From UHGV virus genome UHGV-0179107: a DNA stretch of 13,840 nt, one strand, 5' to 3'. Each line of letters starts with the position of its first letter. The first letter of the stretch is position 1. The position numbers and the translations under genes were made by a program. Shown piece after piece: positions 1 to 12,145 of this stretch. The notes under the pieces were generated by a model. That model ran no database searches. It was not told where the DNA came from and saw nothing but the letters and a program-made list of their open reading frames with translations. Origin of the DNA: a virus.

Positions 1-432
1 CTGAGCAACCAGAGAGCCATCAAACATGCTGCTGATTCGTGCACTGTTGGCCCCTACACGTGCTTTTCTGTGCTGAACATCTCCAACACTACGATCTAAC
101 AGTTTTTGTTGTCTGGCGGCCTCTCTGGCTTGCTGCTGATAGAACTTGCGCATAGAGTTAAGTTCGGAATTGTTGCCCCCGGTCAGACGGCTGACAGCCT
201 GAGCACGTTGTTTCTTCTGTGCTCTGGCGATCTGCTCTTCCACCTTAGCGCGTGTTCTTTGTGTTCTGAGTACAGCCTGATTAGACTTAAAATCAGCTTT
301 AGCAATATCGTCGGTGGCTTTCTTCCAGGATTTTTTATAATCCTCAAGCCGTTTAACCTCTCTACGCCAGGAGGATTTATCAGAATCCCAGTAAATAACG
401 TTTGTTAGTCTGGCTACTTCCTTCATTGCCAT
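1..432 (-). CDS. Hypothetical coiled-coil-rich protein, N-terminal 144 codons only; gene continues past the window start
   Basis: Hand translation of the reverse complement gives an open frame from ATG 432-430 (MAMKEVARLTNVIYWDSDKSSWRREVKRLEDYKK...GSLVAQ) to position 1 with no stop. GAGG lies 6 nt upstream of the ATG, and the ATG is 1 nt after the TAA of the upstream gene. Not in the ORF track because it has no stop in the window. Overlapping plus-strand ORF 106..408 is low-complexity and judged spurious. Confidence 0.5.
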   Translation of the reverse strand, partial: MAMKEVARLTNVIYWDSDKSSWRREVKRLEDYKKSWKKATDDIAKADFKSNQAVLRTQRTRAKVEEQIARAQKKQRAQAVSRLTGGNNSELNSMRKFYQQQAREAARQQKLLDRSVGDVQHRKARVGANSARISSMFDGSLVAQ

Positions 433-433
433 T

Positions 434-670
434 TTATACCTCGCCTTGTCTTAAAGATTTTGATAATGAAATAGCCCTTTTCAGGGCCTCTTTATCAATA
501 TTATATTTCTCTGCCAGCTCTTCGATTGAGAGGCCTTCTGTGTGGGATCCACTTTTAATAATGGTGGACCCCTCTTTCGCTGACTCTGGCAGGTGACATA
601 CTGTCACCCCTTCGGGCGTGTCTTCGGAGTCCTTAACCAGTTTTTGATAAATCTTTTCGTAGGTATTCAT
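434..670 (-). CDS. Small protein (78 aa) with a probable helix-turn-helix near the C-terminus
   Basis: ORF track; ATG 670-668 sits 1 nt after the TGA of the upstream gene (translational coupling). The segment LSIEELAEKYNIDKEALKRAI looks HTH-like by eye. Function not recognised. Confidence 0.55.
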   Translation of the reverse strand: MNTYEKIYQKLVKDSEDTPEGVTVCHLPESAKEGSTIIKSGSHTEGLSIEELAEKYNIDKEALKRAISLSKSLRQGEV

Positions 671-671
671 A

Positions 672-1061
672 TCATTTACCTTTACGCTTCAGTGGGCACT
701 TATCTCCCACAGACCATACAAAAATATAATGGCGCTTGCTTTCAGCTTTAGGATTTAATAATTCTTTATGCAAATATCCGGCTGAAAGCATTTTATCGAT
801 CAGGTTTTTCACTCTTTGCCCTTCCTCAAATGTTTGTGCTTTAAAATAGAGATTTGGGAAGTTCTGACCTGTATATTTTCCATCTTCATATAAGCGGGTG
901 CATACCCAGCGACATAAATCATCATCGTTAAGATCACTAACGTGTGGTTTATCCTCACTGCTAAATAACGCCTGTTTAAAACGGGAGTATTTAAACTCCC
1001 CATCTTCCAGGAAATCACCCTCATCGAACTCAACTATCATTTCTTCAATATTCATAGGCAT
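672..1061 (-). CDS. Hypothetical protein (129 aa), acidic N-terminus
   Basis: ORF track. AAGGA is only 1-2 nt from the ATG at 1061, so the second in-frame ATG at 1055 (spacing about 7) may be the true start. No family recognised. Confidence 0.55.
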   Translation of the reverse strand: MPMNIEEMIVEFDEGDFLEDGEFKYSRFKQALFSSEDKPHVSDLNDDDLCRWVCTRLYEDGKYTGQNFPNLYFKAQTFEEGQRVKNLIDKMLSAGYLHKELLNPKAESKRHYIFVWSVGDKCPLKRKGK

Positions 1062-1080
1062 ATCCTTTTAGATAAACGTG

Positions 1081-1122
1081 AAAAGTAAGATAAATAAAGG
1101 CACCCCCATTTTTTGAGGGTGC
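1081..1122 (-). terminator. Candidate intrinsic terminator or attenuator inside the leftward operon
   Basis: On the minus strand, a GC-rich 6-bp stem (GCACCC / GGGTGC, plus 1100-1105 and 1117-1122) starts 7 nt after the TGA of the 147-aa gene and is followed by UUUAUUUAUCUUACUUUU. The stem is short, so strength is uncertain. Confidence 0.4.
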
Positions 1123-1129
1123 TTATTAA

Positions 1130-1573
1130 TCATTCAAGATTGACCAGTTTGAGAGGCTTCACCGCCTGCAGCATGGCCTGCATCATTCCTACGCTTATTT
1201 CGAAGAGGTCTGCCATGTTTTGAAGGCTGGCACCTTCTGCCTCAATCATTGATTTGGAGAGCGCCGCGATCACGAATCCATCCTTGGCGTTATCCCACAT
1301 GCTGAGGAGGGGATCATCTCCGTGCTGGCGCATAAGGTCTTGAATCATCCACAATCTACATGCCATAACCACCAAATCGACATAAAAAACATCACCATTG
1401 GCGGACTTGCATTCAGCAAAAGCGTGATGCCTGTGTTTTAAGAAGTGCTCTTTGTCACGGGTAAATGCCAGGGTGTTGGTAAACTTGCCATCTAAAAGAT
1501 CCTGGCGAACTTTTGAATCTTCAGCGTCGATAGCTTTGATAACCTGGGATAATAATTTAGCGATTTGAGACAT
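1130..1573 (-). CDS. Hypothetical protein (147 aa)
   Basis: ORF track; AGGA 8 nt upstream of ATG 1573-1571. No family recognised. Confidence 0.6.
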   Translation of the reverse strand: MSQIAKLLSQVIKAIDAEDSKVRQDLLDGKFTNTLAFTRDKEHFLKHRHHAFAECKSANGDVFYVDLVVMACRLWMIQDLMRQHGDDPLLSMWDNAKDGFVIAALSKSMIEAEGASLQNMADLFEISVGMMQAMLQAVKPLKLVNLE

Positions 1574-1593
1574 TTGGAATTCCTTAAATTAGA

Positions 1594-1671
1594 GCCCCGG
1601 AAGGGGTTAAACTCGTGCAAGTAGCCCTCGTCTCGAGGGTGTTAAAGTGAGTCGAAAATAAATAAATAAAT
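1594..1671 (-). promoter_or_regulatory. Intergenic element inside the operon: two short GC hairpins plus an (AAAT)4 tract
   Basis: Seen directly: CCCC-GGAA-GGGG (1595-1606), CCCTCG-TCT-CGAGGG (1625-1639) and (AAAT)x4 (1656-1671), all within the 112-nt spacer between the 162-aa and 147-aa genes. Role (mRNA processing, stability or attenuation) is unknown. Confidence 0.3.
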
Positions 1672-1685
1672 CGAAGAGATAAAAC

Positions 1686-2174
1686 TTAGGCTTTCTGGGC
1701 CATTGCTTTCTGGACTTTATTTCTATGGCGGCGGTAGATGAATATAAATTCGCGATAAGCACGACTACCGGGCTTAGGCAAACGTTGATTAAGCTCCTTA
1801 CGTGGCAGGATTTCACTCAACAAGCCCCATATATGAAAGCAGGTTACTTTTAATTCTTTTGCTATCTCTTCAATATTCATCCCACAATTCCACATTAAAA
1901 GAGATTTGCGGCGGCGATCTTCGAAGACATTTTTATCTCTATCTATGTCGTTATAGACACTGAGGGGAACTCGACACCGTGGATTCCAGGACTCATTATA
2001 TAGTTTTTGGACTTTCTCAAGTTTAACGCCTGTATATTCCGCCACGAATTCAGGGGTAAAGCCCTCGACTAATAAGTGTTTAGCCTGTCGTGTTGGTTGA
2101 TCATCACTGGGAAGATATTTCTGCAGTGCTACCAGTTTTTCGAATTGAGAATCAGAAAGATTAGATTTGAACAT
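1686..2174 (-). CDS. Putative transcription regulator (162 aa) with two HTH-like segments; C-terminal part resembles Mor/C-family phage activators
   Basis: ORF track; GGAG upstream of ATG 2174-2172. The segment RKSLLMWNCGMNIEEIAKELKVTCFHIWGLL matches, from memory, the W-N-x-G-x-N...E-L-A...V-T motif of phage Mu Mor-type activators. The family call is tentative. Confidence 0.55.
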   Translation of the reverse strand: MFKSNLSDSQFEKLVALQKYLPSDDQPTRQAKHLLVEGFTPEFVAEYTGVKLEKVQKLYNESWNPRCRVPLSVYNDIDRDKNVFEDRRRKSLLMWNCGMNIEEIAKELKVTCFHIWGLLSEILPRKELNQRLPKPGSRAYREFIFIYRRHRNKVQKAMAQKA

Positions 2175-2287
2175 GATTAATTCTCCGAACGTTTAAAAGA
2201 TCAGGGCAATCAATCTAGTTCTAGTTCTATATGTAATTAGTTTATTTAGTTTATTTGGGATAACAGGGGAGGAGTAATAATCAAAAA

Positions 2288-2446
2288 TTAATAATCTTCA
2301 TCATAATCATCGTCAAATGTTCTTAACTCTGCAATATAACCGTCTTTCGCGGTATGCTCATAATATTCTTGAGTCTGTTTATCATAAGCCAAATCATCAA
2401 GATATTCTTTGCTAACAACCATATCGGTTAAATCTAAAGTTATCAT
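2288..2446 (-). CDS. Small acidic protein (52 aa), below the ORF-track length cutoff
   Basis: Hand translation: MITLDLTDMVVSKEYLDDLAYDKQTQEYYEHTAKDGYIAELRTFDDDYDEDY, with AAGGA about 8 nt upstream of ATG 2446-2444. It fills the gap between the 305-aa and 162-aa genes on the same strand. Confidence 0.35.
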   Translation of the reverse strand: MITLDLTDMVVSKEYLDDLAYDKQTQEYYEHTAKDGYIAELRTFDDDYDEDY

Positions 2447-2479
2447 AAGAGTTTTCCTTAATTAACTGAAAGGTAAAAA

Positions 2480-3397
2480 TTATTTATCAAGTAAAACCAT
2501 CTTGCCCTCTCTTAAGCGGCAATTTTGCCATGCTGGGAAGGGGTTCAATAAATCTCCGGGATTGGCTTCAGTGTCCACAATAATTTCTATCCCTTCGTTT
2601 TCTTTTAATAGATTTGCTAGACGAAAGGCTTGATCAGTAAGATGCCAATATTTAGCAGAATTCATTATTTTGCCATCAATGGTGCCTTTAATATTTTTCA
2701 TCACCTCATAGCCATAGATTTCATCACGCAATACGCTAAGTTTTACCCTTCCTTTACCTTTATATTTAGCTTTAGCTGCCAGATATGCCGCCTTTGCTTC
2801 AGAATTCGTCAGAACTGGATAACCGTAAAAATCTTTCTCACGTTTGCCAGCGTCTCTACGGCGTTCTCTGCGTTCTTTTTTAGGTTGGGAAGGGGATTGC
2901 ATTGCCTCGGGCTTTTCAGGCTGCTGTGCGGCTTGTTTTGGGGCTTCCTGAGGCTGTTCTACTTTAGCGGCAGTCTTTCCGAAAGTCTCTAAGATGCCTT
3001 CTGGAATATTTACGCCCTTCTCGATGCACATATCCAACAATTGATCAGGGGTTTTCAGCAATTCGTAATGATTAGATTTGCCTTTTTTAACAATTGAAAT
3101 AAGCCCAGCATTTTCAAGAGATTTAATAGCGCTGGCTATTTTCCCGCGATCCTTTCTGAGTTGAGTTGCCAGTTTTTGCTCTGAAATATAAATTCCCTCA
3201 CCGTTAAAATGAAAGCCCACCATTTTTCCATAAATTAACATTTCAAAGTCTGTTAAATAAAAGCGCTCTTTAACTGTTCCCGTCTTTTTATTAGAGATTG
3301 TTGTTGCTACCGGTTTATCAAAATCATACTGAATAAAGAAATCGAAAGAGGGGGTAAAAGGTGCCCCCAGTCTATTTCCTGCCATAATTTCCCCCAT
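2480..3397 (-). CDS. Putative iteron-binding replication initiator / replisome organiser (305 aa): N-terminal winged-helix domain, Q/P/E/K-rich linker, C-terminal domain
   Basis: ORF track. The N-terminal domain (KERFYLTDFEMLIYGKMVGFHF...ISEQKLATQL...AIKSLENAGLISIVKKGKSNHYEL) has the winged-helix layout of lambda-O / phage replisome-organiser type proteins, followed by a basic low-complexity linker (KKERRERRRDAGKREKD). ATG 3397 overlaps the TAA of the upstream paralog; an alternative start at 3385 gives matching MA-N N-termini in both paralogs. Confidence 0.65.
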   Translation of the reverse strand: MGEIMAGNRLGAPFTPSFDFFIQYDFDKPVATTISNKKTGTVKERFYLTDFEMLIYGKMVGFHFNGEGIYISEQKLATQLRKDRGKIASAIKSLENAGLISIVKKGKSNHYELLKTPDQLLDMCIEKGVNIPEGILETFGKTAAKVEQPQEAPKQAAQQPEKPEAMQSPSQPKKERRERRRDAGKREKDFYGYPVLTNSEAKAAYLAAKAKYKGKGRVKLSVLRDEIYGYEVMKNIKGTIDGKIMNSAKYWHLTDQAFRLANLLKENEGIEIIVDTEANPGDLLNPFPAWQNCRLREGKMVLLDK

Positions 3398-3783
3398 TAA
3401 TATATAAAATATTCTCTAATACCCTGCTCATCGCACATCTTGCCAAGCTGATCAGGGGTAATTAGCAATTCGTAGATATTCGATTTGCCCTGTTCTCGTT
3501 TAACGTTTATCAGACCTGCAGCTTCTAATGTTTTGATTGCCGACCTTACTGTTTTCTCTGTAACATCATAATCGTCTGCTAATGTCTGCGTCGAAAGCTC
3601 TGAGATAATTATTTCTTCACCCTCCTTAAAAGAATAACTTACCATTTCACCATAAATTGTTACCTCCAACAAATTTAAGTGAAATCTTTCTTTATTGGTT
3701 GCAGTTTTTGCAATCGGATTTTTAAAAGTGTATTTGATGAAACGTTTAAAAATGGGAGTAAAATTTTCATCGTTGTTTGCCAT
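3397..3783 (-). CDS. Truncated paralog of the adjacent initiator (about 128 aa): winged-helix DNA-binding domain only
   Basis: Clear paralogy with the N-terminus of the 305-aa protein (NFTPIFKRFIKYTF vs PFTPSFDFFIQYDF; GKSNIYELLITPDQLGKMCDEQG vs GKSNHYELLKTPDQLLDMCIEKG). The track start at 3798 is a TTG that overlaps the SD; ATG 3783-3781 with GGAGG 8 nt upstream is the likely start. Confidence 0.65.
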   Translation of the reverse strand: MANNDENFTPIFKRFIKYTFKNPIAKTATNKERFHLNLLEVTIYGEMVSYSFKEGEEIIISELSTQTLADDYDVTEKTVRSAIKTLEAAGLINVKREQGKSNIYELLITPDQLGKMCDEQGIREYFIY

Positions 3784-3807
3784 AATATGATCCTCCAAGA
3801 TTATTTA

Positions 3808-4017
3808 TCAAAGTAGGTGTTTATATCTTTCCAGCTCACGCTCGATGCGGATAAGGTTAAGTTTTTCTATTGCCGCTTCAATATGTGGGTATTTTCCTTT
3901 GTTACGACGGATAAAAGCATAAACAGAATTTTTATAGAACTTGCCGCTAAGCACGTTCTCTACGATTTCGTCAGTAGTCCAGTTTACCAGGGGGCTGACT
4001 GGCCCGTTGCTCGCCAT
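3808..4017 (-). CDS. Small protein (69 aa), first gene of the leftward operon
   Basis: ORF track; perfect AGGAGG (plus 4025-4030) 7 nt upstream of ATG 4017-4015. The opposite-strand ORF 3817..4077 is low-complexity and rejected. Function unknown. Confidence 0.6.
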   Translation of the reverse strand: MASNGPVSPLVNWTTDEIVENVLSGKFYKNSVYAFIRRNKGKYPHIEAAIEKLNLIRIERELERYKHLL

Positions 4018-4138
4018 AATGAGGCCTCCTATAATTCGAATCAGAATGATATACGGTTAAAAAGAAACGGGAACTAATAGCTCCCGCCAGTTAATTAAGG
4101 AAATCCACTATGATGACTTAGTGTATCCCTATGCTTTA

Positions 4139-4170
4139 TATTTTATCAGACATTCGTCAAATTGTCAACA
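4139..4170 (-). promoter_or_regulatory. Candidate sigma70 promoter for the leftward operon (-35 TTGACA, 17-nt spacer, -10 TAAAAT)
   Basis: Minus-strand reading: TGTTGACAATTTGAcgaatgtctgaTAAAAT. The first 14 nt are identical to the -35 region of the capsid promoter at 8017-8030, and the spacers are similar. About 115 nt of leader would precede ATG 4017. Confidence 0.4.
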
Positions 4171-4340
4171 ATCTTTTTGTATTTATCTATCATTTTTTCT
4201 TCAAGATTGTCGATTGCAGTCACTCCGGCTATGTAGGCAACACCGCACCACAGTACAGCCAGGTTGATGATCGCTATTGCATCAGTAATTTCCACATTGA
4301 CCTCCGGATCTGTTTCTCCCCCTATTTATAATCTTATCAT

Positions 4341-4489
4341 ATTGTCAACCAATTGTCAATGAGAATTATTATCATTTAGGTGTGCTATAGGTACAAGCAA
4401 GTCCACAGCAAAGGGGTAAGCATTATTAATGGCCCCTACCGTGTCAAAACCAAAATCACTTATAGCATTTATTCAATAAGATTGTCAAT
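4341..4489 (-). promoter_or_regulatory. Three further ATTGTCAA(C/T) sites (4341-4349, 4352-4360, 4481-4489), each a TTGACA hexamer on the minus strand
   Basis: Seen directly. With the site at 4161-4169 this makes four same-orientation copies in about 330 bp. Possible -10 elements are weak (TAAGAT, TATAAG), so these may be operators or secondary promoters. Confidence 0.35.
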
Positions 4490-4801
4490 GGCCCACAACA
4501 TGCCTTCCTGCAGAAGGTTTGATTTTAATCAAATCCACGAAGTGGACCACAGGAGGGAGAGCACTTTTTGCCTTAGGCGCTCTAAAATCAATTCTAACGC
4601 GATTTAGAGGTCAGGTAATGCAATTGCACTACTCACCACAGTTAATGCAGCCAGAAGGCCATTTAGGGGCCCTATTTTTGATTTATGAGTGTCATATTAC
4701 GTGCATGCACGCGCGGGAGACTCTTTGCTGCCTCCTTCCGGCGCTGGCAAGCTTTCGGCAGCGGTCCACATTGTGGGCCTCATGCTGACGCATTCGCCGG
4801 A

Positions 4802-4963
4802 CCCACACAGACCCGAAGGGCTTAGCCATGGGCTAAGGTGCCGTAGGCACTCCCACACACAATTGGGTGACGTGTCATGTATGGAATACATTGTCACCCC
4901 ACACACAGGCCGACGTAGTCGGTTTAGCTGTATAGCTAAAGTCACAAAGTGACCCACACACAG
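4802..4963 (+). repeat. Array of about 50-bp units, each beginning with CCCACACACAG and containing different short perfect palindromes
   Basis: Punctuation motif at 4802, 4852, 4898 and 4954. Palindromes: CTTAGCC-ATG-GGCTAAG (4821-4837), GTGCC-GTA-GGCAC (4838-4850), GGGTGAC...GTCACCC (4865-4899), CCGAC-GTA-GTCGG (4910-4922), TTAGCT-GTAT-AGCTAA (4924-4939), GTCAC-AAA-GTGAC (4941-4953). Confidence 0.6.
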
Positions 4964-4966
4964 ATT

Positions 4967-5003
4967 GCCTAAAGAGTCGCTCATGCTCTTTAGGCTTTCA
5001 TTT
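4967..5003 (+). terminator. Candidate intrinsic terminator closing the hairpin array
   Basis: Perfect 10-bp stem GCCTAAAGAG / CTCTTTAGGC (4967-4976 and 4986-4995) with a 9-nt loop, followed by TTTCATTT. The minus-strand side has no U-tract. Confidence 0.4.
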
Positions 5004-5124
5004 GTGGGTTAAGCTTTTCCCTTAGAAAACCTTCCCCACTCTCTGATCCCTCCCCATCCCCCCTTGTTGGGGGATTATAGGGGGAGTTCTTTTTATTGAT
5101 CTATTCTCTTTATCTATTAGTGTG

Positions 5125-5270
5125 GGAAATCCCAGCATATATATGTAGGAAATTCCCGCATATATATGTTGGAAATACCAGCATATCCCTTTCTGTGTAT
5201 GGTTGAATATGCGGGAAATTCCAGCATATCGATCCCTATGCATGTGGGAACATGTGGGAAATACCGACAG
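5125..5270. repeat. Iteron array, candidate replication origin: GGAAAT-N-CC-(A/C)-GCATAT repeats
   Basis: Four 16-bp copies at 5125-5140, 5148-5163, 5171-5186 and 5214-5229. The first three are spaced exactly 23 bp (about two helical turns), the fourth is 43 bp further. Degenerate copies follow (tandem CATGTGGGAA x2 at 5241-5260; GGAAATACCGACAG at 5257-5270; GGAAATATGCAGATC at 5403-5417). Confidence 0.55.
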
Positions 5271-6332
5271 GTCTGTGTGGCTTAATTTGACTTGATATTG
5301 ACTAACAAAGGCCTTCGTAGAAGGTTTGAGATGAGCTCAAATCACCATATGTGACTAACAAACCTCTCTCCTCTCTCTTTGCTTTGATTTTCTCTCATGT
5401 GTGGGAAATATGCAGATCAACACCCTTTGATTTTATCGACAGGTATGTTGACACGCCCTACGGTTGTGAGGCCCGGGCATCATAAGTATGGCCCCTGGGG
5501 CAGTCCATCCTTCCCTCACACAGGACAATGAATACACTCCTTGCAGTCATGAATACATAAAGAACATGAAAGACTGTTCACACCAACACGCCGATAAATT
5601 GCCTGAAGAGGCTTACATGGTGGGATTGTTGTGTGGGTAATAGTGATCATGCTAACAGATTATGTTAATCAGATGTAAATTCCGATTTTGTGGTCTGCAG
5701 ATAGCAAACTATACTGGTTAGATGATCAGGGGAATGACTACAAAACAATCAAAAATGTGGGATATAGACATCTATACTTCTAATGTGCTGTGTGGGGTGT
5801 TAGTGCGTCCTAACCTCTAAGTCATTGATTTTAAGTGTTGGGAGAGATGCATTTAACATAATAGATCTTATCTACACTAATAAAGCGCACTACAAAATCT
5901 GATTTAAAAATCATGATAAGGAGGCCCAGAATTTACGTACAGTCACCTGAATAAATAATGTGCACAACATACAGCAAAGCTTAAGAATTAACATAATAGC
6001 AACGTGGTCAGTAGTGGTGTGATATTTGAGAATTGTTAGAAGAAAAAAGGGAGGTGGGGGAGCGCCTGCCTGGCACCTCAGACGAACATCTGACGGGTAT
6101 TAATACCGCTAATGGATATTTCTGACACCCACACCCAAGACCGCTTTCAGCACATAGCCATACACCGCACAGGATGCAATTGTGATAACAAAAAATGGGG
6201 GTGTAATAGGGTAGGCTGTCTTTCATCAAAATCACTTCTACGACGTTACCAGAGTGATAACAAGAAAACAGGCCTCTAAGATTATCTGTGCCTCGTTTTT
6301 AGCTTTTTGTGTGGTTACCAGGTGAAGAGGAA

Positions 6333-6497
6333 ATGTTAAAAACTGTTCATTTTATGCACAAACTAGTCAGGGTGATACCACAAAATGAGGCGCAAGAAAT
6401 CCAGCTGCAGATAATCTTGCAGCCAGATTTTGCAGTTTTTGAGGGTATGTTAAATTTGACAAAAATAGAGAAAAGGCTTATTAAGATAACTTATTGA
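6333..6497 (+). CDS. Possible small ORF (54 aa from ATG 6333), weak
   Basis: ORF track 6309..6497 starts at a GTG; the internal ATG 6333 has GGTGA about 7 nt upstream. It is the only moderately plausible ORF in the 2.7-kb gap, with no recognisable family. Could be non-coding. Confidence 0.2.
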   Translation: MLKTVHFMHKLVRVIPQNEAQEIQLQIILQPDFAVFEGMLNLTKIEKRLIKITY

Positions 6498-6571
6498 TTT
6501 TATTAGTATTATGAAAAAGGGTTACACCCTCTCTCTTACTCTGTCAACCGGGCGGTTGTGGCATAAAACGG

Positions 6572-6697
6572 ATTAAATCAATAAATAGGCATTAAATACC
6601 CATTAAATACCCCTTAAATAGGGGTTAATTGCTCAGGACTGAAAGGAGTGTAAATAGGGGATAAATAGGGGTTAATTGAGGGATAAATAAAAAGGGG
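6572..6697. repeat. AT-rich direct-repeat cluster: TAAATAGGGGTTAATTG x2 plus shorter TAAATAGG and ATTAAAT copies
   Basis: 17-mer at 6615-6631 and 6662-6678 (47 bp apart); TAAATAGGGG at 6651-6660; TAAATAGG at 6582-6589; ATTAAAT at 6572, 6591 and 6603. Lies just beyond the terminator of the membrane-protein operon. Confidence 0.55.
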
Positions 6698-6710
6698 CCG
6701 TGATGGCCCC
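6681..6710 (-). terminator. Rho-independent terminator of the leftward HTH / membrane-protein operon
   Basis: Minus strand: GGGGCC-AUCAC-GGCCCC (plus 6694-6710) followed by UUUUUAUUUAU, starting 8 nt after the TGA at 6721-6719. Confidence 0.7.
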
Positions 6711-6718
6711 CTGGTAGG

Positions 6719-7237
6719 TCAGAACAGTTTTTTGCTTTTTCTCCAACTAACGCCGCGTTTGCCTATGCTCAGCCAGCCGCCAGCGAATCGGGTACCTGCG
6801 GTAACACTAGCTCCCCTGGTGCCTACATGTGCATAAATACCTGCCCCACTGCTACCACCGCTTCTACGGCTTTTTCCGCCATCGATATCGAGGAGAGCAC
6901 AGATTGCACCCCACAAAAAGCCAACCAACCAATATACATATGCTAAGCCTAAAACACCCCAGGTTACCGCCCACCCCTCTAGACTAGTGGGGAAGTAGAA
7001 AGCATTGAGAACAGCATTTATAGGACGGATCAGGAGAGAATCTATAAAACCAATATCCACATGAAACGGGCCATCACCGAACTTGCTACTGCCAATAAAC
7101 AAGGTAGCAGGGTAAAAACAGATAGCCATTAACCAAGGCCCGGCTATCAAAAACGCTGCAGTGTACTGAAAGAACATTTTTACCAGTTCTTTAAAAAGCC
7201 TTTTATTTACTGATTCTTTGTCTTTCTGGAATAACAT
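6719..7237 (-). CDS. Membrane protein (172 aa) with two predicted transmembrane helices and a Gly/Ser/Arg-rich C-terminal tail
   Basis: ORF track. Hydrophobic segments FFQYTAAFLIAGPWLMAICFYPATLFI and WAVTWGVLGLAYVYWLVGFLWGAICALL; tail GKSRRSGGSSGAGIYAHVGTRGAS...SWRKSKK. A purine-rich SD-like stretch precedes ATG 7237. No family recognised. Confidence 0.65.
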   Translation of the reverse strand: MLFQKDKESVNKRLFKELVKMFFQYTAAFLIAGPWLMAICFYPATLFIGSSKFGDGPFHVDIGFIDSLLIRPINAVLNAFYFPTSLEGWAVTWGVLGLAYVYWLVGFLWGAICALLDIDGGKSRRSGGSSGAGIYAHVGTRGASVTAGTRFAGGWLSIGKRGVSWRKSKKLF

Positions 7238-7294
7238 AGCGGTACCCCTTTGCGAGAAGTTGAATTTAGTTAATAACCTGTTGGACCGTTTACA

Positions 7295-7555
7295 TTACTT
7301 AGCTTTCTTGAATCTCCCGTCCTCCTTTCTTTCGATATTGTGGTAGTCGGCATAGGCTTTCAGCCTTCTGTGCACGGTGGCTATCCCCACACCGAAGGTT
7401 TTAGCAATAACCTGTCGTGGTGTTCCCTCCTCGACCATCTTAAACATCTGTGCCGCTACATCCATTTGTGCGGCTATCTCCATTTGCTTTGCCTTTGCTT
7501 TAACTTCAGCTATCAGCTCTTCCCTCAGTCTCCTGATATCTTTAGCCCCCGTCAT
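7295..7555 (-). CDS. Small DNA-binding protein (86 aa): N-terminal coiled coil, C-terminal resolvase/Hin-type HTH
   Basis: ORF track. The segment TPRQVIAKTFGVGIATVHRRLKAY fits the resolvase-type HTH pattern (IA...GV...TV.R.L). GAGGAG precedes ATG 7555-7553. Confidence 0.6.
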   Translation of the reverse strand: MTGAKDIRRLREELIAEVKAKAKQMEIAAQMDVAAQMFKMVEEGTPRQVIAKTFGVGIATVHRRLKAYADYHNIERKEDGRFKKAK

Positions 7556-7597
7556 AAACTCCTCTCAATGCTGTTCATAAACTCATCTCAATGATGA
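7552..7597. repeat. Tandem 23-bp duplication spanning the RBS and start codon of the HTH gene
   Basis: Plus strand TCATAAACTCCTCTCAATGCTGT (7552-7574) and TCATAAACTCATCTCAATGATGA (7575-7597). On the minus strand the upstream copy creates an 8-codon uORF (MNSIERSL) whose TGA overlaps the HTH start codon. Confidence 0.6.
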
Positions 7598-7656
7598 TTA
7601 ATACAAAATCTAAGACTACCAGACCTATTAAAAATGCTTTGCCTCCTTTGCCCATC

Positions 7657-7779
7657 TCATACCTCCACACACAGAGCTAACATCAGGGCTAACACTCCAA
7701 CCACCTCAATTGCCTTAACCATGTGTGGGTGATGAAACCTAGCCTTTTGCCATGCGCTGGCACTGTTCTTGATACCCAT
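7657..7779 (-). CDS. Possible small hydrophobic peptide (40 aa), below the ORF-track cutoff
   Basis: Hand translation: MGIKNSASAWQKARFHHPHMVKAIEVVGVLALMLALCVEV. Its 5-prime leader shares a 15-mer (plus-strand TTTGCGAGAAGTTGA at 7791-7805 and 7249-7263), within a roughly 26-nt homologous region, with the leader of the membrane-protein gene. Confidence 0.3.
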   Translation of the reverse strand: MGIKNSASAWQKARFHHPHMVKAIEVVGVLALMLALCVEV

Positions 7780-8016
7780 ATCTATAACCTTTTGCGAGAA
7801 GTTGATTTGTTTGCTCGGTTGGGTGCTATCAATGCTCCCCTTCCTTGATTCGAACTATAGCCGGGTAAATCCCCGGAAAACATTGATATTGATCAAAAGA
7901 TATCTATCACGAATGAAAAAGTTATGATAGATGCTATGAGATGACGTATTGATGGGATTGATAGAGGTCTGAAAATACCGTTACCACGCTAATTATTAGA
8001 ATTTATATAATCAGGG

Positions 8017-8047
8017 TGTTGACAATTTGAGAGAATACTGATATAAT
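8017..8047 (+). promoter_or_regulatory. Consensus sigma70 promoter upstream of the capsid genes
   Basis: TTGACA (8019-8024), 17-nt spacer, TATAAT (8042-8047), with an AT-rich UP-like tract upstream (7985-8015). The 14-mer TGTTGACAATTTGA (8017-8030) is identical to the reverse complement of 4157-4170. Confidence 0.6.
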
Positions 8048-8190
8048 ATACATATACACCGTAAATCTTTGGTGAAAGTGATTTGCCGTATTTTCCTCCA
8101 AAGTAAAGGCGACCAGGTAGCGGTGCCGCCTTATAAATAACACTACCCTGATCATCGTTGAGTGGTCGATTAATTCTCCTATTGGGCTAG

Positions 8191-8199
8191 TTATCCACA
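8191..8199 (+). promoter_or_regulatory. Perfect DnaA-box consensus TTATCCACA in the capsid leader
   Basis: Exact 9-mer seen directly. It overlaps the left arm of an 8-bp inverted repeat CCACACAG / CTGTGTGG (8195-8202 and 8221-8228). Only one copy, so a chance match is possible. Confidence 0.3.
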
Positions 8200-8366
8200 C
8201 AGTTTTCTTTTGCGGGTTTTCTGTGTGGGTAGCTATCCCGAAAGGTATTTCCCCGCTGATGTGACCGCAGCCTGAACTGATTCGGGGGAGTGCCTTTCGT
8301 GATAGTGCTCTCAAGCAACCGTAACCATGTGCTATCAGCCAACTTTGTTGGTTTTCCTCATGTGGA

Positions 8367-8396
8367 ATAGCCCCCGCTTGGACGGTGCGGGGCTAT
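8367..8396 (+). terminator. Terminator-like or attenuator hairpin in the capsid leader
   Basis: ATAGCCCC(C)GC / GCGGGGCTAT stem with one bulged C and a 9-nt loop, followed by a pyrimidine-rich but imperfect U-tract (CTCCCTCTTCTTAT). Lies between the promoter and the first capsid-module gene. Confidence 0.3.
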
Positions 8397-8525
8397 CTCC
8401 CTCTTCTTATATCAATCTCCCTTTTAATAGATTTCCGGCATAACTTTTCGGCCCGAGCCTGTCGTAGTTCTAGAGGTTATGCCGGAACTCTTTGAGGGGA
8501 GTTAATTTAAATCGCAGGTGATCAA

Positions 8526-8861
8526 ATGAGAGATATGACTATCCGCACACGCGGACACATCATTTCATACGCCGCAGATGAGCAATTCTCTATTCGTGAC
8601 GTGGAAGTGAAAAATAAAGTTAAGGCTGAGATCCCGGCCGGCACTGTTGTTGTGGTGACTGAGGCTGGCGAGGTTGAGACCTTCGTTAAAGCAACGCACA
8701 CCGGTAAAACTCCGCTGCTGGTTGTAGAACGTGCTGAGGTTGGTGATGCTTTTATCGTTGTTGCCAACAAAGGCTGTTATATCAATCCGGCCTACGTGGA
8801 TAAAGACGGCTTAGCCGCTGTTATCGCTGCCAGCAATGGCGATCTGCGTGTTGCACAATAA
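8526..8861 (+). CDS. Putative head decoration or accessory capsid protein (111 aa), immediately upstream of the major capsid gene
   Basis: ORF track; AGGTG 5 nt upstream of ATG 8526. Codon usage looks typical of highly expressed genes. Position and size parallel lambda D relative to E, but no direct sequence similarity was recognised, so the product call is positional. Confidence 0.55.
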   Translation: MRDMTIRTRGHIISYAADEQFSIRDVEVKNKVKAEIPAGTVVVVTEAGEVETFVKATHTGKTPLLVVERAEVGDAFIVVANKGCYINPAYVDKDGLAAVIAASNGDLRVAQ

Positions 8862-8872
8862 GGAGGTTGAAG

Positions 8873-9919
8873 ATGGCTAAAAAAGAATTCGAAGTTCGCG
8901 ATCTGTGTGGTCTGATTAAAGACATCCCGCTGGATAACCAGATTATTTCAGCAATGGATATCTTTAACACTACTGCTCTGTGCAATACCTTTAAATTTGA
9001 ATATGACAAAGTCCGCCAGGTGAAACAAACCGCTTTCGGTCAGTATCCGCGCTACGGTGAACAGATGGCGACCATTACCGCAGATGAGCGTGAAACGGGC
9101 ACGGGTGATATGGCATTCACTGCCGCATCCAGTGCTATTTATCCTTCTGACTGGCAGGGTATTCGTGTTCCGGGCAAAGATTCCGAAGAGAATTTAGAGT
9201 CTGTTACCGCTCGGCGTGTTATTCAGTTGGGTGAAGGCTTACGCCAGACCCATGAAGAAGCACGCCAGCTTGCTCTCTTTGAGAACAAAATTATCCTCAC
9301 CAAGGGTAAAGAACTGAATGTGTGCGAACTGCTGGGCGCACAGCAAACCACCTCGGAAGTGGATTTAGCTAAAGATATCCTTAAACAGCTGCAGGACCTG
9401 GTTGCACTGAGCAAGATTAAACAGCGTGGTGTCGTTCGCGCTCTTCGTGGTTTCACCCTGTTCTGCCGTGCTGAGCTCTTTGCTGCAATTCAGACTGATG
9501 AACTGTTGAGAAAAGTGCTGTTGTTCGGCAATCAGAATATTACCGACAAAGGTCTGATGTTCCCTGAGGATATTCTGCCGGGCTTCCCGACCTTCCGCAT
9601 TCCGGGCTTAGCCCTGCGTGTGGTGCAAATGGATAGTCTGCCAGAGAATACTGCTTATCTGGTCCCACAATTCCAGCCACATGCGTTAGGCGATATGGTG
9701 GGCGTTTATACTCAATTTTTCGGCCCTTGCGCTCGCAACTTGAAGCTTGCAAACGGCGCTGCACGTGAAGCTTTCATGTATATGGAAGAGTCCAGAGGTA
9801 AACGAGAAATCTTCATTGAATCCTCTTATGCTTTCATGAACATGATGCCTGAGGTTGTGGTTAAAGTGAGTGTTAGTAACTCCGCCGCCGCTGCTCTGGC
9901 AAAAGCCAAGGCTAAATAA
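8873..9919 (+). CDS. Major capsid protein, lambda gpE-like family (348 aa from ATG 8873)
   Basis: Track start 8867 is a TTG; ATG 8873 has a perfect AGGAGG 6 nt upstream. Size and the C-terminal LPENTAYLVP segment parallel lambda gpE (341 aa; LPDNTMVLG), recalled from memory. Confidence 0.8.
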   Translation: MAKKEFEVRDLCGLIKDIPLDNQIISAMDIFNTTALCNTFKFEYDKVRQVKQTAFGQYPRYGEQMATITADERETGTGDMAFTAASSAIYPSDWQGIRVPGKDSEENLESVTARRVIQLGEGLRQTHEEARQLALFENKIILTKGKELNVCELLGAQQTTSEVDLAKDILKQLQDLVALSKIKQRGVVRALRGFTLFCRAELFAAIQTDELLRKVLLFGNQNITDKGLMFPEDILPGFPTFRIPGLALRVVQMDSLPENTAYLVPQFQPHALGDMVGVYTQFFGPCARNLKLANGAAREAFMYMEESRGKREIFIESSYAFMNMMPEVVVKVSVSNSAAAALAKAKAK

Positions 9920-9950
9920 GGTCCTTCTTCGAAGGCCAAATAAAAGCAAA

Positions 9951-9999
9951 GGGAAGAGGTGAGAGATCGGGGATAGGTCTTTCCCTCTTCCCTTTTTTT
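9951..9999 (+). terminator. Strong rho-independent terminator after the major capsid gene
   Basis: GGGAAGAGG (9951-9959) pairs with CCTCTTCCC (9984-9992), followed by TTTTTTT (9993-9999). A small CCTTC-TTC-GAAGG hairpin (9923-9935) sits just after the stop codon. Confidence 0.7.
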
Positions 10000-10033
10000 A
10001 TTATCCCCGTCTTAAGTTTTTGAGGTGTCTTTT

Positions 10034-10285
10034 ATGAAAATTGTTTTATACGGCGACCGTGACGACGTGCCTTTTGATATTATCCATATCGATGACGAGG
10101 ATCTGCCGGAATTCCTGCGTATCTCCACATTTGCCGCCTGCTATGACGTTAGCCGCCAGGCTATGCACAAGTACCGTGAATATAATAAATGCACCTGGGC
10201 CGAGACTTTCGAACATTTTATTGCACGCAAACAAACCCAGGACCGCAAAAAAGCCCTGAATGCGCATAATCGTTTTGCAAAATAA
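10034..10285 (+). CDS. Small protein (84 aa), acidic N-terminus and a possible HTH
   Basis: Track start 10025 is a GTG; ATG 10034 has GAGGTG about 7 nt upstream. The segment LRISTFAACYDVSRQAMHKY looks HTH-like by eye. Function unknown. Confidence 0.5.
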   Translation: MKIVLYGDRDDVPFDIIHIDDEDLPEFLRISTFAACYDVSRQAMHKYREYNKCTWAETFEHFIARKQTQDRKKALNAHNRFAK

Positions 10286-10359
10286 CGATAGATAGCCCTG
10301 TCTTTTTATCAGAATTCACACAGGGCCACCAAAAGATTCAATTTGGAGGCATGTTTAAT

Positions 10360-11163
10360 ATGGCTAGTGATGCTCTGACAGCTGCAAAACAAGCTGAGTC
10401 GAGATCTCCTGCATTCACTGTTATGTGTGGGGGATATTCACAAAACAAAAATATAATGGATGGCTTCAACTATACCGATAATGTGGCTATCTTCTTTGAC
10501 TCTATCTCTGATGTCAGCTATTCGTTCCCTGTTGAGAAATCGAGCTATGCGGTCGAGGATGGCACCACCATGTCAGACCATGCCGTCATTAAAGATAAAT
10601 CTGTCAGCTTTACGGGTATTATTACCTCTTCCCCTCATATCATCCGGAAAGAGAACTACATTGACCGGAACACTGATCCAGATAATCCCCGTGAGTCTAT
10701 GCGCCCTGCTGCCGCTGTTCAGGCACTTATGGAAATGAGAGACAAGCGCCAGCTAGTCAGCCTGGTGAGTGAAGATGCCGGACTCCTTGAGAACTTCATC
10801 ATGACGAAATGTGAAGTTAAGCGTAGCTCTTCCTCTGGCGACTGCATCACTATTGATTGCACCTTTGAAGAATTCCGCACCTTCAAGGTGAAGATGGTCG
10901 AAAATGCCGGAGTCTTCACTAACAGCAAGAAGGTGAACAAAACACAGCAAAAGGGTGCTGTTAACAGTGCTAAAGAGGGTAGTAACGCTGGCAATGCTGC
11001 TACGAAATCCACCAGGGCTAAGCATCGCGGGGAATATGCACAGGGAGAGGCAGCGGGAAAGATTGCCGCAGGTGATAAGTCTGTTGTGTCGAACGAGTTC
11101 CACGAAACGATGATCGATAAGGCCAACATGTTGCTTGATGACATAACGGAGATCAATAAATGA
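10360..11163 (+). CDS. Phage morphogenesis-module protein of unknown role (267 aa), with a Lys/Ala/Gly-rich low-complexity C-terminus
   Basis: ORF track 10351..11163. GGAGG (10345-10349) is 1 nt from ATG 10351 but 10 nt from ATG 10360, so 10360 is preferred. The stop overlaps the next start (ATGA at 11160-11163). Confidence 0.55.
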   Translation: MASDALTAAKQAESRSPAFTVMCGGYSQNKNIMDGFNYTDNVAIFFDSISDVSYSFPVEKSSYAVEDGTTMSDHAVIKDKSVSFTGIITSSPHIIRKENYIDRNTDPDNPRESMRPAAAVQALMEMRDKRQLVSLVSEDAGLLENFIMTKCEVKRSSSSGDCITIDCTFEEFRTFKVKMVENAGVFTNSKKVNKTQQKGAVNSAKEGSNAGNAATKSTRAKHRGEYAQGEAAGKIAAGDKSVVSNEFHETMIDKANMLLDDITEINK

Positions 11164-11618
11164 GTCCTAAAGTCCGGTGCACCATAGACAAGCGCATGAT
11201 GGATAAGCTGCATAAAGAGCTCTCACAGATGGAAGGTGTAGCGGTTGGCTGGGATGACGGAAAGCACTATAGCGGCCTGAATTATGCCACACTGGCAGCA
11301 ATTCATTCTGAGGGGTGGGGTGATTTGCCTAAGCGCTCCTTTATGGAATCTGCACACGCTGCAATGCTCTATGAGAGCCTGAGACACACAAAAGCCCTGA
11401 TTAATGCAATCGTAAAGGGTGGAAGCTCTGAGGCCGTCAGGAAGCGAATTGGCAAGCGATACGCCGACATTTTGGAGACTATCCTGATTAGTGGGCAATT
11501 CAGCAATAACAAGGTATCCCCACAATGGGCAAGCTATAAAGGCTTCAATGATGCCATGCGCCACTATGATGATTTGATCGGTGCAATCAAATACTGGTCA
11601 AATGTGGGGAGAGGTTGA
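11160..11618 (+). CDS. Putative tail-completion / virion-morphogenesis protein (152 aa), HK97 gp10 / P2 gpS-like
   Basis: ORF track; translationally coupled to the upstream gene. The segment NYATLAAIHSEGWGDLPKRSF resembles the YA-x-IH-x-FG motif recalled for these head-tail joining families. Assignment is from memory, not a search. Confidence 0.55.
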   Translation: MSPKVRCTIDKRMMDKLHKELSQMEGVAVGWDDGKHYSGLNYATLAAIHSEGWGDLPKRSFMESAHAAMLYESLRHTKALINAIVKGGSSEAVRKRIGKRYADILETILISGQFSNNKVSPQWASYKGFNDAMRHYDDLIGAIKYWSNVGRG

Positions 11619-11959
11619 AAAAGACAATAGTGTTCTTTTGAGGCCGTAGTGATACACCACAAATCAGCCCCTTTCCACTTCTTTTTCTCGCGATTGGTCC
11701 CTTGTGAGAATCCTTTATCAGGTATGCATTGTCCCGTGCATGAGCGGTCGATAGAGCCAGCCTCTTTCCCGGACTGGTTAGGATTTAGTGCGCTGATTGA
11801 GCGCCGCTATCACTGTTAGCCTGTTTATCGTTGCCTGGTTTGTGCATCACTGCACCCCCTGGGCACCGGACCCGCCTCAAAGGTCGGATCATCACAATTG
11901 GCGGGGCGGTTTTATAGTCGCTTTAAGGTTTATAGGCCGGAGTTGACTTACCTTCCGGC

Positions 11960-12007
11960 AACCTGCTAACATTAGTCTCGCGAGAGGTTGATTTTTGTTA
12001 GCAGGTT
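11960..12007. repeat. Perfect 12-bp inverted repeat with a nested palindrome in the convergent intergenic region
   Basis: AACCTGCTAACA (11960-11971) and TGTTAGCAGGTT (11996-12007), separated by 24 nt that contain the 10-bp palindrome TCTCGCGAGA (11976-11985). Confidence 0.6.
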
Positions 12008-12036
12008 CGCCCCGCATCAAAAGGATACCGGAGAAG

Positions 12037-12067
12037 AGCCCCTTTGTTAACACTTAGGGGCTTTTTT
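12037..12067 (+). terminator. Intrinsic terminator, plus-strand orientation
   Basis: AGCCCCT (12037-12043) pairs with AGGGGCT (12056-12062) around a 12-nt loop, followed by TTTTT (12063-12067). The minus-strand side has an A-run before the stem and no U-tract after it. Confidence 0.5.
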
Positions 12068-12145
12068 CTTGCCTGGAGTTTATCCGGTTAAGCTAACTTA
12101 TTGATTTTGATCACAATATCAGTAAAGCTGCACTATCTTCCAGCA

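Follow-up and report, generated by a model that had tools for sequence, protein, structure and literature searches.

The CI RNA of P4 (with its seqA, seqB and seqC), the c4 RNA of P1 and RNA II and RNA I of ColE1 are structured non-coding leaders with short complementary motifs and gating terminators. In the nut/rut sites of lambda (rutA-boxB-rutB), C-rich, G-poor unpaired segments lie between small hairpins with purine-rich loops. The REP/BIME sequences of E. coli are mosaics of palindromic units and short linkers, the copy number of which varies between strains, while CRISPR arrays alternate a constant mark with variable units. Hairpins of a particular type are also found in single-stranded DNA signals. 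The C(GNA)G mini-hairpin is extraordinarily stable in DNA, its RNA counterparts being much less stable, and it occurs in the complementary-strand origins of G4, St-1 and alpha3, in ssiA of RSF1010 (as CCGAAGG) and in the N4 promoters (PMC13037366). In the G4-type ssi signals, that is, the G4, St-1 and alpha3 origins and the plasmid G-sites, about three stable hairpins flank a short unpaired recognition sequence, GNA or GNNA mini-hairpins are present, and the signal acts in one strand only, near the origin (PMC13037366). In RSF1010 a CCGAAGG hairpin and a nearby linear start motif lie beside iterons and an AT-rich region (PMC8567376, PMC13037366), and the two sites, ssiA and ssiB, are on complementary strands (PMC8567376).

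The element described here resembles these origin-proximal signals (the ssi sites of G4 and RSF1010, the leaders of P4 and ColE1) but lacks defining features of each family with which it was compared. It is found in a stretch of viral DNA of 13,840 nucleotides (UHGV-0179107), analysed at its full length and referred to here as the window, which is a complete member of a family of circular plasmids of 13.3-14.4 kb from Escherichia, Shigella and E. albertii. A gene 500 nt away from the array specifies a 49-aa protein that is recorded in 1,657 sample blocks, mostly on 10-20 kb contigs. About 2.4 kb of the plasmid, at 4300-6700, is non-coding. In Pfam and PHROG scans of ten proteins, the gene content includes two winged-helix, O-like initiators and HTH proteins. 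The plasmid also encodes structural proteins, namely a major head protein, a Dit-like tail protein (50% identical to rV5 gp048), a tail-completion protein (45% identical to gp056) and a tape measure (27% identical to gp049). Because these capsid and tail proteins are related to those of rV5, the plasmid is most likely a satellite of rV5-like phages (Vequintavirus). According to a 2025 review, plasmid nature had been demonstrated for a single satellite only (PMC12282955). The literature we searched held no description of this plasmid family or of rV5 satellites and no Vequintavirus transcriptomes.

The array consists of four units on the + strand, each of which begins with the constant 8-mer CCCACACA (starts at 4802, 4852, 4898 and 4953; spacing 50, 46 and 55 nt). 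In unit 1 (4802-4851), identified by direct reading, a hairpin scan and covariation with the variants T2-T6, the 8-mer is followed by a triple-hairpin cassette made up of CCC-GAA-GGG (4812-4820), CTTAGCC-ATG-GGCTAAG (4821-4837) and GTGCC-GTA-GGCAC (4838-4850). Unit 2 (4852-4897; direct reading, folding and known variants) has a nested cassette, with ATGTAT-GGA-ATACAT (4877-4891) inside GGTGAC/GTCACC. Unit 3 (4898-4952; direct reading, hairpin scan and covariation) has a second triple-hairpin cassette with CCGAC-GTA-GTCGG (4910-4922), TTTAGCT-GTAT-AGCTAAA (4923-4940) and GTCAC-AAA-GTGAC (4941-4953). Unit 4 (4953-5008) has a terminator-like hairpin, GCCTAAAGAG..CTCTTTAGGC at 4967-4995, followed by TTTCATTT and a closing TGTGGG, which is the complement of CCCACA. 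A first-pass annotation, made from the sequence alone, had described perfect palindromes punctuated by a constant mark, and the sequence agrees with this apart from small corrections. The mark had been given as the 11-mer CCCACACACAG, which is exact in units 3 and 4, while unit 1 reads CCCACACAGAC and unit 2 CCCACACACAA. One of two outlying palindromes that it listed, CCTTC-GTA-GAAGG, is present, with a G-N-A loop on the + strand, but sits at 5312-5324, one base from where it had been placed; the other, AGGGT-TAC-ACCCT, was found as described at 6518-6530.

The array is far from random. Its 202 nt contain 8 perfect hairpins (stem >=5, loop 3-5) against 0.56 +/- 0.82 in 2000 shuffles, about 14 times the chance rate, and CCCACACA is present in 11 copies in the 13.8 kb window against 0.32 expected, with none of 200 shuffles having as many. 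Folding of both strands as RNA and as single-stranded DNA, which the first-pass annotation had proposed as a check, gave z-scores of -4.9 (+ strand) and -4.3 (- strand) for RNA and of -5.6 (+ strand) and -5.0 (- strand) for DNA, all four being 4-6 SD better than shuffles. Each cassette comprises one to three abutting hairpins that fold independently, and since the hairpins abut without a linker only CCCACACA plus 2-5 nt is left unpaired. These unpaired segments read CCCACACA(CA)(G/A/T), and the number of CCCACACA copies per element ranges from one to five.

Comparison of more than 40 family members yielded at least 22 distinct arrays. The repertoire of cassettes bounded by CCCACACA comprises the triple-hairpin cassette T, the nested cassette B, the cassettes F (~97 nt) and G (~75 nt), the terminator cassette D and the leader E or an alternative, E'. 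The orders seen are T-B-T-D, B-T-D, T-B-D, B-D, E-F-D, T-F-G and E'-B-T-D, and plasmids that are otherwise similar differ in cassette number and order. The suggestion that homologues be examined for compensatory changes was borne out, in that the stems are kept through paired changes. All three stems are kept in the seven variants of the T cassette. Both sides have changed in 7 of its 17 pairs (16 cells) and one side only in none, and 99.1% of the cells are paired. The covariation score was not reached in any of 500 shuffles, and when the partners were slid by 1-3 columns only 0-1 compensatory pairs were left. The polymorphisms between close relatives sit in loops, not stems. As the T-cassette stems are kept by compensatory changes, the structure itself, and not the primary sequence alone, is on this comparative evidence under selection. 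The hairpin chain, parted by unpaired CCCACACA, is real and evolutionarily maintained; its role is still putative.

The units are 46-56 nt long, lengths that do not divide by 3, so that insertion or deletion of a cassette breaks any frame, and the overlapping ORFs of the array region have no Pfam match at E <= 1. The region is therefore non-coding, and we rejected a protein-coding gene or its remnant on these grounds. A decayed fragment of a known gene, which had been named as a possible outcome fatal to the idea of a structured element, is not what we find, as neither a protein family nor a coding frame fits.

Palindromes are symmetric and folding energies therefore cannot identify the strand that folds; with similar z-scores on both strands, for RNA as well as DNA, we discarded folding energy as a discriminator. 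The loops are more informative. The catalogue of cassettes, taken with the flanks, contains 17 distinct triloops, of which 15 have the form R-N-R on the + strand (GAA, GTA, GGA, AAA, AGA, ATG, AGG, GGG and GTG) and none is Y-N-Y. Between 4534 and 5324 the + strand has five C(GNA)G mini-hairpins, the - strand none. Since the G-N-A and purine-rich loops are found there only, the + strand is the one that folds and hence the functional strand. The triloops of rV5, taken genome-wide, have no G-N-A bias, and such hairpins are therefore not a general feature of this phage. The motif too is oriented. All seven copies of CCCACACA outside the array in the plasmid are in the complementary orientation (UGUGUGGG on the + strand), and those checked in relatives keep their positions. 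Three of these - strand copies, at 5398-5405, 5630-5637 and 5789-5796, lie to the right of the iterons, with positions kept in all relatives examined. To the left of the iterons CCCACACA is thus on the + strand and to their right on the - strand, in either case the leading-strand template.

The limits first given for the array enclosed a real structure but missed its context, since a longer conserved element (~4500-5095), shared with rV5-like phages, extends beyond the array, which makes up its distal part. At 4502-4546 there is a group of + strand hairpins, GCCTTC..GAAGG followed by a T-run, TTTGAT-TTTA-ATCAAA and the mini-hairpin TCCAC-GAA-GTGGA. The palindrome CGTGCATGCACG, read directly at 4700-4711 on the + strand, comes immediately before the leader, and its place is taken by CGTATACG or CGTGT..ACACG in other leader types. 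The leader module E (4711-4772, + strand) consists of GCGCGGGAGACTC, a stem in which GCTGCC (4727-4732) pairs with GGCAGC (4757-4762), a conserved 24-nt loop and GGTCCACATT, and a covariance model matches it once per element. It is followed by a second leader hairpin, GGC..ATGC-TGAC-GCAT..GCC (4773-4801, + strand), identified by direct reading and folding, and then by the array. The only sigma-70-like candidate upstream of the array on this strand is TTGTCA-16-AATTAT at 4342-4369. The equivalent place is also occupied in two relatives (L001 and L005, array strand). We regard the site as weak because it scores 9/12 and overlaps a divergent leftward promoter. The terminator-like hairpin at 4502-4518 (GCCTTC..GAAGG with its T-run) stands between this candidate and the array, and the 300 nt upstream contain no convincing sigma-70 promoter in rV5 or in any of four leader types.

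Downstream, the terminator-like hairpin with which the array had been said to end (4967-4995 plus TTTCATTT) was also flagged by our scan (-18.8 kcal/mol, z -4.2). Most relatives have it, and a divergent unit-4 variant in one of them (L004) has kept the T-rich tail (TTCTCTTT). A second such hairpin, CCUCCCCAUCCCCCC..GGGGGAUUAUAGGGGGAG followed by TTCTTTTTATT, lies at 5050-5093 on the + strand (hairpin 5050-5086, -23 kcal/mol, C/G-rich), and equivalents were flagged on the array strand in L001, L005 and L155. In both structures (4967-5003 and 5050-5093), which other leader types have kept, the T-tract is confined to the + strand, and both show the GC-containing stem-loop with a direct T-tract that is expected of an intrinsic terminator. 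An AT-rich stretch (~5085-5120) then precedes the iterons that form the plasmid origin, five 23-nt copies at 5121-5275, which had been correctly recognised as adjoining the array. The iteron sequence varies among family members while CCCACACA is constant, and we therefore rejected the idea that the 8-mer is tied to iteron specificity.

The array element is one of only two non-coding stretches common to the plasmid and rV5. Leader E (4711-4772) is 84% identical over 63 nt to rV5, and in 119 Vequintavirus genomes a match of ~84% identity lies beside iterons, between genes and without annotation. The layout in rV5 is E, one CCCACACA, two hairpin modules, ~140 nt of AT-rich sequence, the iterons (GTGTCCGTA.CACGGACAG) and the initiator gene. 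This gene encodes a 116-aa winged-helix protein, annotated in RefSeq as "replication initiation protein", which is weakly similar to the 133-aa initiator of the plasmid. The rV5 locus has no Rfam, tRNA or tmRNA match, and no terminator was seen in its version of the element. Distant versions of E are also found on IMG/VR phage contigs of 117-139 kb (L124, L127 and L189), and on L127 the genes to either side correspond to the rV5 neighbourhood. The MAFFT alignment under the covariance model had L124 and L127 out of register; the pair counts of the model were therefore dropped and the E stem was read directly instead. Conservation within E covers its 24-nt loop and both flanks, GCGCGGGAGACTC and GGTCCACATT, but not the stem, which reads GCTGCC/GGCAGC in the plasmids, ACCGAC/GTCGGT in rV5, GACGGC/GCCGTC in L124, GCCGGA/TCCGGC in L127 and GTCCGGAT/ATCCGGAC in the E' plasmids, that is, five different stems at one place among plasmids, rV5 and IMG/VR phages. 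The IMG/VR contigs and E' plasmids have hairpin cassettes of their own, punctuated by CCCACACA and closed by ATTTGTGGG. Module G, which is last in some plasmids, matches the last rV5 module with two compensatory changes. Because the stems have been swapped while the flanks, the loop and CCCACACA are constant, the conserved features are the unpaired motifs and pairing as such, not the stem sequences.

The 8-mer is also enriched five-fold in rV5 as a whole (21 copies against ~4 expected). All nine of its non-coding copies are in the sense of local transcription, and two rV5 5' UTRs have the form hairpin-CCCACACA-...-AGAGGAAAACAT-ATG. Scans of viral contigs for CCCACACA..CCCACACA gave mostly chance matches, the only true relatives being L124 and L127, and a scan with the E-loop pattern recovered only L124 and L189. 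A metagenome scan with the leader as anchor found only two near-identical plasmids, and the terminator pattern found a single unrelated palindrome in viral contigs. When genome contigs were scanned for three marks, CRISPR arrays with a period of 61 nt, the repeat of which contains CCCACACA, dominated the matches and made the scan uninformative.

Compared with the described systems, the element shares with the P4, P1 and ColE1 RNAs the form of a structured leader, with CCCACA/TGTGGG as its counterpart of their complementary motifs, and P4 is likewise a plasmid-capable satellite. It differs in having no Rfam C4 match and in pointing at an origin, not an operon, and a cassette architecture with a repeated punctuation mark is not known from the P4, P1 or ColE1 RNAs. 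The C-rich, G-poor linkers and purine-rich loops recall lambda nut/rut, but the sequences are different and no N-like or boxA element was identified at the array. The role of the array being only putative, its likeness to the G4-type signals is one of form: unit 1 is a cluster of three hairpins that abut, and so is unit 3, the G-N-A loops being on the + strand. Unlike those signals, it has units that are repeated and shuffled, an 8-mer motif, T-tract terminators after it and no conserved CTG on its + strand to match the unpaired CTG next to hairpin I. The CCGAAGG of RSF1010 ssiA is the core of the unit-1 hairpin, and CCCACACA on either side of the iterons recalls the two RSF1010 sites on complementary strands. 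In RSF1010, however, each is a single site of 40 nt that is recognised by a RepB' primase encoded on the plasmid itself, whereas the array plasmid has no recognisable primase and its hairpins are not mirrored. REPs are imperfect palindromes of ~35 nt in alternating orientation and dispersed on the chromosome, whereas the array units are direct, perfect, short and confined to the origin region.

The first-pass annotation had set aside a CRISPR array and a tRNA, and we agree. The mark is 8-11 nt long, against 23-47 nt for CRISPR repeats, the units of 46-56 nt are palindromic hairpins shared between related plasmids where CRISPR spacers are unique and unstructured, there are no cas genes, and ARAGORN found 0 tRNA or tmRNA genes. 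In Rfam, including the C4 antisense RNA and ctRNA families, the region 4350-5100 has no match better than E = 2 (14 bits). A type III toxin-antitoxin RNA array was rejected because the units are dissimilar and the array is followed by an origin, not a toxin gene. DnaA boxes do not explain the region, as there is no enrichment of relaxed boxes and the single perfect one lies at 8191, and CCCACACA as a T7-type primase site (GGGTC, opposite strand) fits only 2 of the 4 units. A tRNA-like structure, an integron attC site, an oriT nic-site, a CsrB-type sponge and a retron were also rejected, the defining partner gene or motif being absent in each case.

In the reading that we favour, at a probability of about 45%, the array would be the distal half of a + strand non-coding leader that points at the iteron origin, displays CCCACACA and is stopped by the two terminator-like hairpins. 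Such a leader, of ~300-630 nt, is most likely transcribed. RNA polymerase would start upstream, at the weak conserved site at 4342-4369 or at a helper-dependent promoter, and the cassettes would be transcribed, their hairpins presenting CCCACACA as a single-stranded handle. This handle might be read by the UGUGUGGG sites on + strand transcripts, by Rho, or by a host or phage RNA-binding factor. The first are candidates because all seven non-array copies are so oriented and because TTTGTGGG closes the array, and Rho is one because the linkers are C-rich and G-free, like a 60-nt tract after rV5 gp158. Reading of the handle could then gate between a stop at the tandem terminators and transcription that enters the origin. 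The principle would be the one known from replication-control or immunity leaders such as the P4 CI RNA and ColE1 RNA II, or from the transcriptional activation of phage origins. If the cassettes are redundant, they could be gained, lost and reshuffled through recombination at the CCCACACA repeats. The + strand terminators, the conserved promoter-like site and the sense orientation of CCCACACA in rV5 suggest a transcript, and the position of the two tandem terminators, directly ahead of the AT-rich and iteron core, implies that this core is reached by + strand transcription. The want of a good nearby promoter, the intervening hairpin at 4502-4518 and the rV5 element without a terminator suggest the opposite. 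As read, the ~54 pairs of the array stems contain no G.U, and folding adds few, at helix ends (9 of 189 pairs over all modules). This near-absence of G.U speaks against RNA, and C-G-closed G-N-A loops would be an unexpected choice for one.

The same features bear on a DNA signal. If the origin is unwound, the + strand mini-hairpins may exclude SSB and leave CCCACACA exposed for priming or helicase loading, as in an ssi site, with host DnaG or the T7-like primase-helicase of the rV5 helper as possible users, the latter giving the satellite access to the helper replisome. The array lies directly beside the AT-rich and iteron core in both plasmid and rV5, its mini-hairpins of the C(GNA)G type are confined to the + strand, the stems as read are all Watson-Crick, the motif alone is unpaired between abutting hairpins, and we found no good promoter from which the array might be transcribed. 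The presence of CCCACACA on the leading-strand template both left and right of the iterons also recalls RSF1010 ssiA/ssiB (PMC8567376). Such a signal should however have a start site for DnaG, and a conserved unpaired CTG is missing from the + strand; the plasmid has no primase recognisable by Pfam and PHROG among ten proteins, the - strand to the right of the iterons has no mirror image of the hairpins (at 5312, too, the G-N-A loop is on the + strand), the 8-mer is too rare for a general priming site, and the two T-tract terminators are left unexplained. We consider this DNA reading, which the first-pass annotation had raised alongside a structured non-coding RNA ending at the 4967-5003 hairpin, the main rival, though somewhat unlikely. 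It is unlikely, too, that the array and leader E together are an origin module copied from the helper, serving the T7-like replisome of rV5, or some factor of that phage, as a signal for loading, priming or transcript activation.

Two further explanations do without a single-stranded reader. The cassettes might be neutral or selfish units of REP/BIME type, spread by slippage and by recombination at CCCACACA, with nothing reading the motif specifically and with at most a generic role as insulator or stabiliser of RNA ends. Variable copy number and order would be expected of such filler, and similar hairpin pairs do occur at other intergenic places (after the stop of rV5 gp158; window 571-628). 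The 8-mer, however, is exactly kept across elements with fully diverged stems, the position beside the origin is fixed, the loops are strongly strand-asymmetric, and polymorphisms spare the stems, all of which makes filler very unlikely. The array might also be bound as duplex by a plasmid or helper protein, for example the small terminase, at operators, a centromere or a pac site. Direct repeats ~five helical turns apart are reminiscent of centromere or pac arrays, and a satellite must share a packaging signal with its helper, for which the array, as one of two non-coding stretches shared with rV5, would qualify. A protein that reads duplex would not tolerate arms that change freely yet stay complementary, the loop asymmetry indicates one strand, and the array is constant where iterons and Rep proteins vary; we regard duplex sites as highly improbable. 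The first-pass annotation had offered a set of operators as an alternative to a structured single-strand element beside the origin. The core of its idea holds, given the compensatory stems and + strand loops, while the operators are disfavoured because the stem sequences change freely while pairing is kept.

Three aspects of the element are new, namely a constant unpaired 8-mer between freely evolving hairpin modules, an element common to the origin of a lytic phage and a satellite-like plasmid, and the variation of this element in copy number. If functional, it would be an undescribed structured module under strong selection, situated where the replication of both plasmid and phage is controlled and carried by abundant capsid-encoding E. 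coli plasmids (>1,600 sample blocks) as well as by lytic Vequintavirus, a major group of therapeutic candidates. It could offer a handle on how a plasmid-borne satellite senses or exploits its helper and on the form, DNA or RNA, in which short G-N-A mini-hairpins act in vivo, and the cassette architecture may serve as a natural model for the presentation of a short single-stranded motif. If the module was copied from the helper, up to five copies beside private iterons might allow the plasmid to switch from host-driven to helper-driven amplification. The satellite could then out-compete the phage origin, which would be a new route of satellite parasitism and a new class of modular single-strand origin signal.

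Hairpin pairs were also observed away from the origin. In rV5, just after the gp158 stop codon, there is a hairpin pair with a 60-nt G-free tract around CCCACACA. Positions 571-628 of the window resemble rV5 105688-105736, a similar intergenic hairpin pair.

The window (1-13840) belongs to a very common family of Escherichia/Shigella plasmids of 13.3-14.4 kb. It encodes a capsid gene of its own, and its tail genes are akin to gp048, gp056 and gp049 of the Vequintavirus phage rV5. The window is probably a plasmid-borne satellite of a Vequintavirus. The plasmid family appears to be undescribed so far, and a literature search for it found no paper. In the 39,610 bp record NZ_CP043822.1 the region was matched at three places; this record probably holds a ~13.2 kb unit three times over, as a trimer, or else is an assembly artefact.

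The rV5 genome contains an unannotated stretch of 2.6 kb (NC_011041, 104013-106618, which is 4013-6618 of our rV5 locus L147) with a hairpin pair immediately past the gp158 stop codon. It also holds a G-free tract of 60 nt, a promoter (TTGACA-17-TAAAAT), several copies of CCTGAAGAG, about 10 repeats resembling ACTGTTTAC and five copies of CCCACACA, the 8-mer that separates the array hairpins, with one switch of orientation among the copies. Positions 105688-105736 of this stretch are 80% identical to window 571-628. The hairpins GGTGAC..GTCACC and CCC-TTCG-GGG are common to both, with a compensatory difference between them. The window segment adjoins a further CCCACACA (539-546, minus strand) and is close to where a small ORF starts, itself upstream of the tape-measure gene.

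Three more copies of CCCACACA, at fixed spacing, are found in a non-coding block on the minus strand (5380-5830) that shows ~90-95% conservation and in which a 21-nt indel is a duplication of ATGTATTCAT. This block may serve as a packaging site or encode a second RNA. Another conserved copy (8222-8229, minus strand) lies ~30 nt from a perfect DnaA box, TTATCCACA (8191-8199), which is located in the 970 nt of intergenic DNA that separate the HTH gene from the capsid operon. CCCACACA also forms part of a widespread CRISPR repeat with a 61-nt period (...TTTCCCCACACACGTGGGGGTGAACC...), present in many phyla (genome contigs L197-L276 and viral loci L030 and L121), and any scan by pattern for the 8-mer is swamped by these arrays.

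Strong leftward sigma-70 promoters are predicted on the minus strand at 4331-4494; a scan gave TTGACA-17-TAAGAT (4359-4331) and TTGACA-17-TAAAAT (4168-4140), and TTGACA-18-TATAAG (~4490-4460) was read by eye, all on this strand. The rep operon is preceded by repeated ATTGTCAA motifs. At 6582-6689, next to a 172-aa ORF, the 11-nt units TAAATACCCAT and TAAATAGGGGA each form a tandem run of 3.5 copies; both runs are probably binding sites for some protein. In the relatives L155 (reverse strand, right of the array), L135, L136 and L166, iterons of the types that other members of the family use, such as gtgaaaattcttcacagg, gcggtaatatttaccgg, gcggagaaattctccgg and gtaggaaataccgac, occur in one copy each to the right of the plasmid's own iteron set. 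The single copies could be decoy or incompatibility sites.
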